Source of the DNA: an uncultured Acidobacteriota bacterium
GTDB taxonomy: Bacteria; Acidobacteriota; Vicinamibacteria; Vicinamibacterales; 2-12-FULL-66-21
DNA length: 64,000 nucleotides
Direction: 5' to 3'
Assembly (NCBI GenBank): GCA_963750475.1
Contig: CAVVQQ010000003.1
Coordinates: 513,191-577,190 of the forward strand
The position numbers were made by a program, and so were the translations under genes. Under the pieces are notes generated by a model, which worked only from the letters and a program-made list of their open reading frames with translations, was not told the origin of the DNA and searched no databases. This document shows, one piece after another, positions 60,185-61,650 of the stretch. Every line of letters begins with the position of its first letter. The first letter of the stretch is position 1.

Positions 60185-60300
60185 GCAGCTGCTCAGCTTC
60201 AGCTGTCAGCTACCGGCTGCCAGGGCGTGCAGCTGGTGGCGAGGTCGCGGGAGCGGCTGAAGTGCTGCCAGCGGTGAGCTGGCAGCTGGAAACGGCAGCG
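60185..60300. repeat. Heptamer arrays in both orientations (CAGCTNN then AGCTGGN) between lon and clpX
   Basis: The first part is cagctgc tcagctt cagctgt cagctac cggctgc, and the second part includes agctggc agctgga aacggca. The two parts share several complementary 8-12-nt blocks, for example ccggctgccag and ctggcagctgg. Confidence 0.85.
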
Positions 60301-60301
60301 T

Positions 60302-61557
60302 CTATCCCGCCTTCTCGATCAGCGTGATCGGCTTTTCCTTGCTCTGCACCACTTCGCGGGTGATCACGCACTCGCGGATCTTCTTCTGGCCCGGGCAGCG
60401 TGTACATCAGGTCGAGCATCAGGTCCTCGATGATCATCCGCAGGCCGCGGGCGCCGATCTTGCGCGCCAGCGCCGCTTCGGCGATCGCCTCGAGGGAATC
60501 GTCCGTGAAGCGCAGCTTCACGTTCTCGTACTCGAACAGCTTCTGGTACTGACGCGTGATCGCGTTGCGCGGTTGCGTGAGGATCTGGACCAGCGCCGGC
60601 CTTGTCGAGCTCGTGCAGCGTGCCGATGACCGGCAGGCGGCCGACGAACTCGGGAATCAGGCCGTACTTGATCAGGTCCTCCGGCTCGAGCATCTCGAGC
60701 GTCGTGCCGATGTCGCGGTTGCGACATCGACTTGACGTCGGCCTTGAAGCCGAGCGTCTTCTTGCCGATGCGGCGGTCGATCTGCTTGTCGAGGCCGACG
60801 AAGGCGCCGCCGCAGATGAACAGGATGTTGGTCGTGTCGACCTGGAAGAACTCCTGGTGCGGGTGCTTGCGGCCGCCCTGCGGCGGGACGTTGGCGACCG
60901 TGCCCTCGAGGATCTTCAGCAGCGCCTGCTGGACGCCCTCGCCCGAGACGTCGCGGGTGATCGAGGGGTTCTCGTCCTTGCGGCAGATCTTGTCGACTTC
61001 GTCGATGTAGATGATGCCCTGCTGCGCACTTCTCGATGTCGCCGCCGGCCGCCTGCAGCAGCTTGAGGATGATGTTCTCGACATCCTCGCCGACGTACCC
61101 GGCCTCGGTCAGCGTCGTCGCGTCGACGATGGTGAAGGGGACGGAGAGCAGCTTGGCGAGGGTCTGCGCGAGCAGCGTCTTGCCGGTGCCGGTCGGGCCG
61201 ATCAGCAGGATGTTCGACTTGGTGAGCTCGATCTCGTTGCGGCTGCGCGGCTGCTTCTGGATCTCGATGCGCTTGTAGTGGTTGTAGACCGCGACCGCGA
61301 GCTTCTTCTTGGTCTGTTCCTGGCCGATGACGTACTCGTCGAGGAACTTCTTGATTTCCTGCGGGGACGGGCAGCGACGAGCGGGCGCCGCCGCGCGCCT
61401 CGAACCGGTTGTCGTCGGCGATGATGTCGTTGCAGACCTCGACGCACTCGTCGCAGATGAAGACCGTCGGGCCCGCAATCAGCTTGCGGACGTCGTTCTG
61501 GTCCTTGTTGCAGAACGAGCAGCGGAGGACCTCGCCGTCGCCGGTTTTCTTCACCAT
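60302..61557 (-). pseudogene. clpX: ATP-dependent Clp protease ATP-binding subunit ClpX, many frame changes as assembled
   Basis: The zinc-binding N-terminus is [36 protein letters not shown]. Also present are Walker [42 protein letters not shown] and [11 protein letters not shown]. The C-terminus [21 protein letters not shown] reaches a TAG at 60302-60304. Confidence 0.9.
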
Positions 61558-61650
61558 GGTCGTTGTCAGCTTCCAGCTTCCAGCGTCCGGCTTCCCGCTG
61601 GCACCCGTGACCGGAAACGCTGGCAGCTGGGAGCTGGCAGCGGTGAGCGC
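61558..61650. repeat. Inverted heptamer arrays forming a ~24-bp hairpin between clpP and clpX
   Basis: The reverse complement of cagcttccagcttccagcg (61567-61585) matches cgctggcagctgggagctg (61618-61636) at 17 of 19 positions. tccgg and ccgga extend the stem. The loop is about 20 nt. Confidence 0.85.

Follow-up and report, generated by a model that had tools for sequence, protein, structure and literature searches.

Both intergenic gaps of the clpP-clpX-lon operon in a 64,000-nucleotide (nt) stretch of an uncultured Acidobacteriota bacterium of the Vicinamibacterales (contig CAVVQQ010000003.1 of assembly GCA_963750475.1; the whole stretch is here called the window, and positions are counted from its first letter) contain arrays of 7-nt tandem units in opposite orientations. 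We consider that the two gaps probably hold local copies of a genome-wide intergenic repeat class, made of 7-nt tandem units and often arranged as opposed pairs able to form an imperfect hairpin or cruciform, and not a regulator specific to this operon. Arrays with a period of 7 are enriched, are confined to spacers beside unrelated genes, are paired with an inverted partner in about half of cases, turn over fast and share unit families within a genome.

The operon lies on the minus strand, and the clpP/clpX gap (gap 1; 61558-61650, 93 nt) is nearly all one imperfect hairpin of opposed heptamer arrays. Arm A (61567-61590) consists of the plus-strand units CAGCTTC, CAGCTTC and CAGCGTC followed by CGG, and was found both in the fold and by Tandem Repeats Finder (TRF; 61567-61599, period 7, 4.7 copies). 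On the mRNA it is the 3' arm (GGAAGCUGGAAGCUG), ending approximately 10 nt before the clpX AUG. The 20 nt loop (61591-61610) is non-repeat sequence and is dissimilar to the loops of other elements. Arm B (61611-61643; plus strand CCGGAAACGCTGGCAGCTGGGAGCTGGCAGC), which was also found in the fold and by TRF (61619-61641/61648), is on the mRNA a 5' arm of CCAGCUN units. Pairing of 61567-61590 with CCGGAAACGCTGGCAGCTGGGAGCTG (61611-61636) gives 24 pairs, with two mismatches, one of them G-T, and a 2-nt bulge. An earlier, sequence-only reading of the window had proposed a pairing of approximately 24 bp with two mismatches, a 2-nt bulge and a loop of approximately 20 nt here, and direct reading, TRF and the fold bear it out exactly. 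The sense RNA of gap 1 folds at -45.6 kcal/mol. For a 98-nt piece the z score was -2.1, with 2 of 200 shuffled sequences as stable, while the exact gap gave z = -3.1 as sense RNA and z = -3.8 when folded as DNA.

In the clpX/lon gap (gap 2; 60170-60301, 132 nt), two degenerate opposed CAGCTGN arrays surround a non-repeat core of approximately 40 nt. The array nearest lon (60186-60217) reads CAGCTGC, TCAGCTT, CAGCTGT, CAGCTAC and CGGC on the plus strand; it was called by TRF (60186-60211), recovered by pattern matches and folds on itself. The array nearest clpX (60258-60296) is made of minus-strand CCAGCTN units, with pattern matches at 60264-60288 on the minus strand, and forms a 9-bp local hairpin of its own. 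Both are short and degenerate: TRF scored the first at 36-45 and left the second uncalled, and a strict period-7 detector flagged neither. As CAGCTG is nearly palindromic, each arm folds on itself, and the sense RNA is predicted to form two local hairpins and a closing stem (-55.1 kcal/mol, z = -3.5 to -3.8). The sequence-only reading had described this gap as filled almost entirely by opposed arrays that form a long hairpin. The opposed arrays are present, but they span roughly half of the gap and fold as two local hairpins rather than as a single long one.

An element of the same type is located at 1350-1478 (minus strand), in the tandem gap between a 146-amino-acid (aa) open reading frame (ORF) and an enolase-superfamily gene. 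Its arms of approximately eight and approximately five CCAGCTC/CCCGCTT units fill the whole spacer with one mismatch per heptad, and TRF reports a period of 7 at 1359-1411. It is a longer version of the gap 1 element. The inverted-pair structure previously noted at 1355-1478 was confirmed, with a fold (-104 kcal/mol, z = -7.8) stronger than that of gap 1, and the expectation raised at the same time, that the array RNAs would fold better than shuffled sequence, held for gap 1, gap 2 and 1350-1478 alike. In the 64-kb window, CAGCTNNCAGCTNNCAGC occurs 28 times with at most one mismatch, compared with 0.03 expected, and TRF together with the period-7 detector found about a dozen heptamer arrays (1-89, 1358-1475, 6975-7056, 26717-26864, 31394-31483, 34985-35035, 43894-43961, 46701-46782, both clp gaps and 63862-63934). 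These are built of related units (CCAGCTN, CCCGCTT and CCAGTNN), forming inverted pairs in some places and solitary arrays in others. The adjacent genes are unrelated and include those for an enolase-family enzyme, transporters, argininosuccinate synthase, a short-chain dehydrogenase/reductase (SDR), an aldo-keto reductase and an M28 peptidase; no functional theme was found among the array-flanking genes in the window.

When a stitched ClpX sequence was used as a query, 80 Acidobacteriota loci were returned, the closest of which were Vicinamibacterales metagenome-assembled genomes (MAGs) with 89-97% identity, and a DNA pattern at the lon start returned 16 further metagenome contigs. A total of 480 kb of Vicinamibacterales sequence contained 77 arrays with a period of 7, compared with 8 after block shuffling. 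In the same 480 kb, periods 8 to 15 gave 9, 5, 0, 0, 1, 0, 0 and 1 arrays, respectively. Non-coding DNA makes up only 14% of the sequence, yet 84% of the array bases fall outside called genes, and in the related loci arrays occupy 34/200 tandem gaps (17%), 3/28 divergent gaps and 1/20 convergent gaps. An inverted partner (at least 12/14 matches) was found within 150 nt of 52 of 101 arrays, compared with 2-6 in reversed or complemented controls. Units at different sites are more alike within a genome, where 23% of unit pairs differ by at most one base, than between genomes, where 5% do (permutation p = 0.0004). The C-rich arm comes first in every CCAGCTN-type pair listed, a property that is the same from either strand. 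A universal arm-order rule based on purine or G content was considered and rejected (29 vs 18 overall), and the order is fixed only within families. Inverted heptamer pairs were also found in Pyrinomonadaceae loci and in some Terriglobia loci. Period-7 arrays are thus common in the Vicinamibacterales and present in other Acidobacteriota.

Comparison of the two operon gaps among relatives revealed that both their length and their content are variable. The clpP/clpX gap ranges from 0 to 126 nt and the clpX/lon gap from 0 to 219 nt, with strict arrays in 7/39 and 14/43 genomes, respectively. Many relatives have gaps of 0-25 nt without a hairpin, the short spacer containing a plain Shine-Dalgarno (SD) sequence. 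Where the clpP/clpX gap is at least 50 nt long and lacks arrays, there is no excess folding (median z = -0.5), and the hairpin there is therefore not a conserved requirement. The clpX/lon arrays often start at the stop codon itself and finish 10-20 nt before the lon start, and their units differ from locus to locus: CGCTTCC (locus L001), TTTCCAG (L002), CTTCCNG (L003), GATTGNN (L004 and L009), GAATTCT (L006), CAGATTT (L010), GGGAYCA (L015), CCAGGCT (L019), GCAGATT (L081) and a 9-mer (L088). Inverted GGGACTN arrays are also present at a third site, which lies just downstream of lon, in L001, L005, L015, L086 and L091, and a remnant of such an array is found at the corresponding position in the window (57700-57765, minus strand).

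Two relatives allow the replacement to be followed more closely. L091 and L001 both show a third-codon divergence of 0.16-0.17 from the window, but the clpX/lon gap of L091 is 90% identical to that of the window, with many indels, while that of L001 cannot be aligned with it. Gaps are thus sometimes replaced wholesale. The gaps have a far higher density of indels than the flanking coding DNA, and one pair of sequences shows a clean 7-nt indel. In L091, which has the closest homologous gap, both arms of the clpX/lon gap pair as one hairpin, whereas in the window a few substitutions leave each arm with its own hairpin; thus, the structure is not conserved even between homologous copies. The sequence-only reading had looked to the same gaps in relatives for conservation of the inverted arrangement. 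The inverted architecture does recur in many relatives and array length varies, but the units, the presence of arrays and the fold are not conserved.

Three further loci are of note. The clpX/lon gap of L088 contains inverted arrays of a 9-nt unit (CATTGCCAA / TTGGCAATG) and no heptamer, so the opposed-array architecture is not strictly tied to a period of 7. L093 and L001 are nearly identical over the clpX 3' end, the clpX/lon gap and the lon start, while their clpP/clpX gaps and ClpX N-termini are wholly different, a mosaic that suggests either recombination within the operon or a chimeric contig. The clpP/clpX gap of L084 has no arrays and includes a direct duplication of approximately 16 nt (AACAGGTCCACCCCAT) that takes in the clpX start region.

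The arrays had been proposed to act as attenuators or as processing elements that set the ClpP:ClpX:Lon ratio. This was not supported: similar arrays lie beside unrelated genes, neither gap has a terminator-like site on the transcribed strand, there is no sense-strand bias and the arrays are not conserved. Selection acting on the transcript should favour the fold of the sense strand, as a G-U pair on one strand corresponds to an A-C mismatch on the other. Among tandem-gap elements the sense strand was the more stable in 13 cases and the antisense strand in 23, with 8 and 12 for the clp gaps alone, and G-U counts gave the same result. A terminator scan of the minus strand found no stem followed by a U-tract in either gap, and the sequences that follow the gap stems (ACAACGACC and ACGAAUCACCC) contain no run of U. 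At the gathering threshold Rfam 15 returned only the tRNA-Leu and nothing relevant to the arrays, and a permissive Rfam scan gave a single spurious match to a plant microRNA (E = 0.16). Stem mismatches occur roughly once per heptad, suggesting independent drift of the two arms. In two close pairs (L085/L086 and window/L091) there were too few substitutions for compensatory changes to be assessed, and those inspected were mostly uncompensated or fell at variable unit positions. With gaps that are often short, arrays that are patchily distributed and folds that differ between L091 and the window, the features expected of a conserved operon-specific cis-regulatory RNA were not found. Sequestration of the SD sequence by the 3' arms is speculation: these contain GGAAG or GGGAG approximately 13-17 nt upstream of the start codons, which is a poor spacing, and not all unit families show the pattern. 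A sigma-32-like interpretation of ACCCATAC, just before the lon ATG, was rejected because the sequence abuts the start codon.

If the gaps hold repeats of a genome-wide class, slipped-strand mispairing in a 7-nt register would make the arrays grow and shrink. An inverted partner could be derived from fold-back or strand-switch copying, or from the spread of array sequence within the genome, and arrays would expand into whatever part of the spacer is left free by selection on the stop codon and start region that flank it. Within a genome they would spread or homogenise, and they would be tolerated only in spacers. Those in the clp-lon operon would be transcribed from a promoter-like site upstream of clpP, and the RNA is predicted to form one stem of approximately 24-30 bp between clpP and clpX, and two shorter ones between clpX and lon. 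Exonucleases may be slowed by such stems, RNase III may be recruited to them, or initiation at clpX and lon may be impeded. Decay, processing or initiation could plausibly be affected, as the 3' arm in the clpP/clpX gap ends so near the clpX AUG. We regard any effect that the arrays may have on ClpP:ClpX:Lon ratios or on mRNA decay as an incidental by-product, and not as the reason for their presence.

Several observations do not sit easily with this interpretation. Slippage alone leaves the inverted partner, the fixed arm order within families and the unit families shared across a genome unexplained. Tandem gaps are richer in arrays (34/200) than convergent gaps (1/20), as would fit a role in operons, though these numbers are small and the same orthologous gaps enter the count more than once. 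Among relatives, the clpX/lon gap is occupied far more often than the 17% average for tandem gaps, which could reflect either selection or inheritance from a shared ancestor. Finally, substitutions in the alignable gaps (78/636 = 0.12) are fewer than at third codon positions (629/3191 = 0.20), which could mean constraint, in a test that is confounded by overlap among the pairs and by repeat alignment, which inflates identity.

The same observations can be read as signs of functional RNA hairpins comparable to repetitive extragenic palindromic (REP) sequences, with the stems blocking 3'-to-5' exonucleases or creating RNase III or RNase E sites and so tuning the clpP, clpX and lon segments of the message. 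This is the idea of the sequence-only reading, and we consider it unlikely. Folds that beat shuffled sequence, an inverted architecture that many relatives retain in the clpX/lon gap despite changed units, a gap substitution rate that does not exceed the third-codon rate and a preference for tandem gaps would all suit such a role. It is harder to see why, under that explanation, so many relatives should have gaps of 0-25 nt with no hairpin, why array-free clpP/clpX gaps should show no excess structure and why the structures of the window and L091 should differ. Neither the sense strand nor G-U pairing is favoured, and like arrays occur next to unrelated genes and in divergent gaps, while some are solitary and make no hairpin. 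Intrinsic terminators or attenuators, partly stopping transcription after clpP and after clpX, are a very improbable explanation. The GC-rich stems do directly follow stop codons, and terminators lacking a U-tract have been proposed for high-GC bacteria, although this is disputed. However, neither stem precedes a U run, nothing was detected in the minus-strand scan of the gaps, only 1/20 convergent gaps contains an array and the folds are symmetric between the strands.

Mobility could account for part of the pattern, namely its spread. The inverted pairs would then be non-autonomous units resembling REP doublets that form hairpins (REPINs) or MITEs (miniature inverted-repeat transposable elements), copied by a host enzyme such as a REP-associated tyrosine transposase (RAYT) and subsequently modified by slippage. 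Genome-specific unit families, an arm order that is fixed within families, the complete replacement of the gap in one of two equally diverged relatives, the intergenic location and the hairpin form are all features that such elements would show. Nevertheless, what the eleven elements of the window have in common is limited to 14-48 nt of array sequence, with no shared loop, flank or termini, and no target-site duplications or conserved ends were seen by inspection of the 64-kb window. There is no fixed foot of the GTAG/CTAC type: although GGTAGC is present in certain units, all four bases are found at the variable position. Copy number and element length also vary, contrary to what is expected of a MITE, and on balance we find a mobile origin of this kind improbable. 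An artefact of a noisy long-read assembly is hardly conceivable. Many single-base insertions are present in this region of the window, but dozens of independent assemblies, short-read MAGs and Joint Genome Institute (JGI) metagenome contigs among them, show the same architecture in the same gaps. An artefact is thereby refuted for the arrays themselves, and only small bulges in the arms remain uncertain.

The genes of the operon were identified despite these insertions. The clpP gene (61651-62252, minus strand) matches Pfam CLP_protease over its N-terminal 111 aa (E = 1e-43); its stop codon at 61651-61653 was read directly, and 1-nt insertions break the frame. For clpX (60302-61557, minus strand; ATG at 61557, stop at 60302-60304), a three-frame stitch required five frame changes in the window sequence, Pfam zf-C4_ClpX and AAA_2 were matched, and the protein is 97% identical to the ClpX of L001. 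The lon gene (57771-60169, minus strand; ATG at 60169, stop at 57771-57773) is also frameshifted in the window, and its N-terminus matches Pfam LON_substr_bdg (E = 9e-35). Relative to a close relative, the coding sequence of this region contains a single-base insertion every 250-300 nt or so, outside homopolymer runs. Substitutions between the window and the relative at codon positions 1, 2 and 3 number 11, 2 and 98. As this pattern is strongly purifying, the insertions look like local sequence errors, and the genes not like pseudogenes. Random 1-nt insertions in the window also mean that small bulges in the array arms may be sequence errors. Coding sequence broken by insertions is found at 56000-64000 and at 29500-47000, while elsewhere it is intact, for example in the 1129-aa ORF at 2027-5416.

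Upstream of clpP, a promoter-like site at 62333-62362 (minus strand) consists of TTGACA, an 18-nt spacer and TATAAT. This is a match to the sigma-70 consensus only, perfect at 12/12 positions, and the site sits between tig and clpP, approximately 80 nt upstream of the clpP start. The tRNA-Leu gene (63747-63831, minus strand) and tig are located further upstream. Immediately upstream of the tRNA-Leu gene, in the sense of transcription and so ahead of tig and clpP, is a solitary array of approximately 10 copies of GCGGGAA/GCTGGAA (63862-63934).

Other arrays in the window differ in organization. The solitary (GCCAGTC)n array at 6975-7056, in the convergent gap between the dicarboxylate symporter and argininosuccinate synthase genes, has neither an inverted partner nor hairpin potential. 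The composite element at 26717-26864, flanked by genes for an SDR and a Na:Ala symporter, comprises (GCTTCCC)4, (CCAGTAA)4, (AGCTGGN)5 and (AACTGGC)3. Its arrays follow the order A B A' B', in which pairing of A with A' and of B with B' would cross, giving rise to a pseudoknot-like topology. The window begins inside a (TACTGGT/CACTGGC)n array (1-89) of approximately 13 copies, and any inverted partner of it would fall outside the window. At 31394-31483, a CCAGCTN array that can also be described as two copies of a 42-nt repeat apparently lies within a coding region, where it encodes a low-complexity insert of the QLPAPSS type. The translations on either side (YTDAITYTKVTILDTFE ... GEVHVVSRVVGFKKIKFYTNENVGSGELDLPEQQ) read as one protein, which we take to resemble a helicase-associated domain, and frame changes nearby may be errors. 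At 34985-35122, a CGCTTCC heptamer array passes into an array of approximately 11 copies of an 8-mer (ACGCTGCC); a period of 7 is therefore dominant, not exclusive. At 46817-47103 a tandem array of approximately 290 nt with periods of 10, 15 and 30 (GAACCCTGCA / CAGAACCCTGCAGAA) and a strong minus-strand fold directly follows the heptamer array at 46701-46782 and directly precedes the M28 peptidase gene.

The closest known parallel in architecture is found in Xanthomonas campestris and X. axonopodis, which have 70-75 inverted (convergent) pairs of GGGAATC heptamer arrays per genome, of unknown function (Rehm et al. 2015, PMC4692102). As in the sequences described here, the unit is 7 nt long, copy number is variable and the arrays are overwhelmingly intergenic, mostly between same-strand genes, in a high-GC genome. 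Further shared features are dozens of sites at which arrays on opposed strands could form stem-loops or cruciforms, a fixed arm order and variation between species, and some of the relatives examined here use similar units (GGGACTC, GGGATTC) downstream of lon. However, the units CAGCTNN, CCCGCTT and CCAGTNN contain no runs of three G residues, so the G-quadruplex idea does not apply to them. Many units coexist here within and between genomes, rather than one dominant unit, and the lineage is the Acidobacteriota. The elements have the architecture of the Xanthomonas-type pairs, with at least three copies of a 7-nt unit, an intergenic location and opposed arrays, but not the G-rich unit; GGGAATC defines the Xanthomonas sequence family and not the architectural class.

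Less similar systems share some of these properties. In the summary given in PMC4679880, heptanucleotides are the commonest class among the long simple sequence repeats (SSRs) of bacteria, with polymerase slippage suggested as the cause (Mrazek et al. 2007). Those SSRs likewise favour a unit length of 7, are intergenic, have a proposed origin in slippage and are distributed in a lineage-dependent manner, but they are mostly described as solitary direct arrays, whereas approximately half of the arrays here are in inverted pairs. The heptamers among the short tandemly repeated repetitive (STRR) sequences of cyanobacteria are a comparable repeat class. TAACTGA direct repeats are known from marine Beggiatoaceae, some Cyanobacteria and some Bacteroidetes (MacGregor 2015, PMC4679880), and are also intergenic heptamer arrays, abundant in particular lineages and with no demonstrated function. 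They differ in having one fixed unit that is almost always direct, with one inverted case reported, and that lies a few nt upstream of start codons in a fixed orientation.

The REPs, bacterial interspersed mosaic elements (BIMEs) and REPINs of Proteobacteria are, like the elements here, intergenic hairpins of two inverted copies, often within operons and belonging to genome-specific families, and REPs stabilize upstream mRNA. REPs, however, are single palindromic units of approximately 20-40 nt whose sequence and foot motif are conserved and which are linked to RAYTs, while the elements here have arms of variable numbers of tandem 7-mers with unrelated loops and flanks. Rho-independent terminators also place a GC-rich stem-loop directly after a stop codon, but the elements here have no U-tract, have much longer stems with periodic mismatches and are not enriched in convergent gaps. 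A search for heptamer repeats in Acidobacteria found no paper in the literature that was searchable, which is not proof of absence.

As regulators of the operon the arrays are of little importance, with the evidence pointing away from a dedicated role. Their significance is that a little studied class, the inverted heptamer arrays, is extended from Xanthomonas to the abundant and mostly uncultured soil Acidobacteriota. Heptamer arrays are also likely to be trouble spots in assembly, and can mislead searches for structured RNAs. The pattern is an unusual one, in that the period of 7, the opposed arms and the filled spacer are retained at one orthologous site through replacement of the unit sequence, with unit families specific to each genome and a fixed arm order within a family, and it bears on the old question of why 7 nt is favoured for long SSRs in bacteria and how inverted partners arise. 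By analogy with the maintenance of REPINs by RAYTs, the arrays could also constitute a distinct, actively propagated class of Acidobacteriota element, with unit families and arm order kept by a dedicated enzyme or a heptad-reading protein, and with the host using the modular RNA or DNA hairpins in its operons. We think this quite unlikely, but if true it would explain why the clpX/lon gap remains occupied even though its sequence is exchanged.

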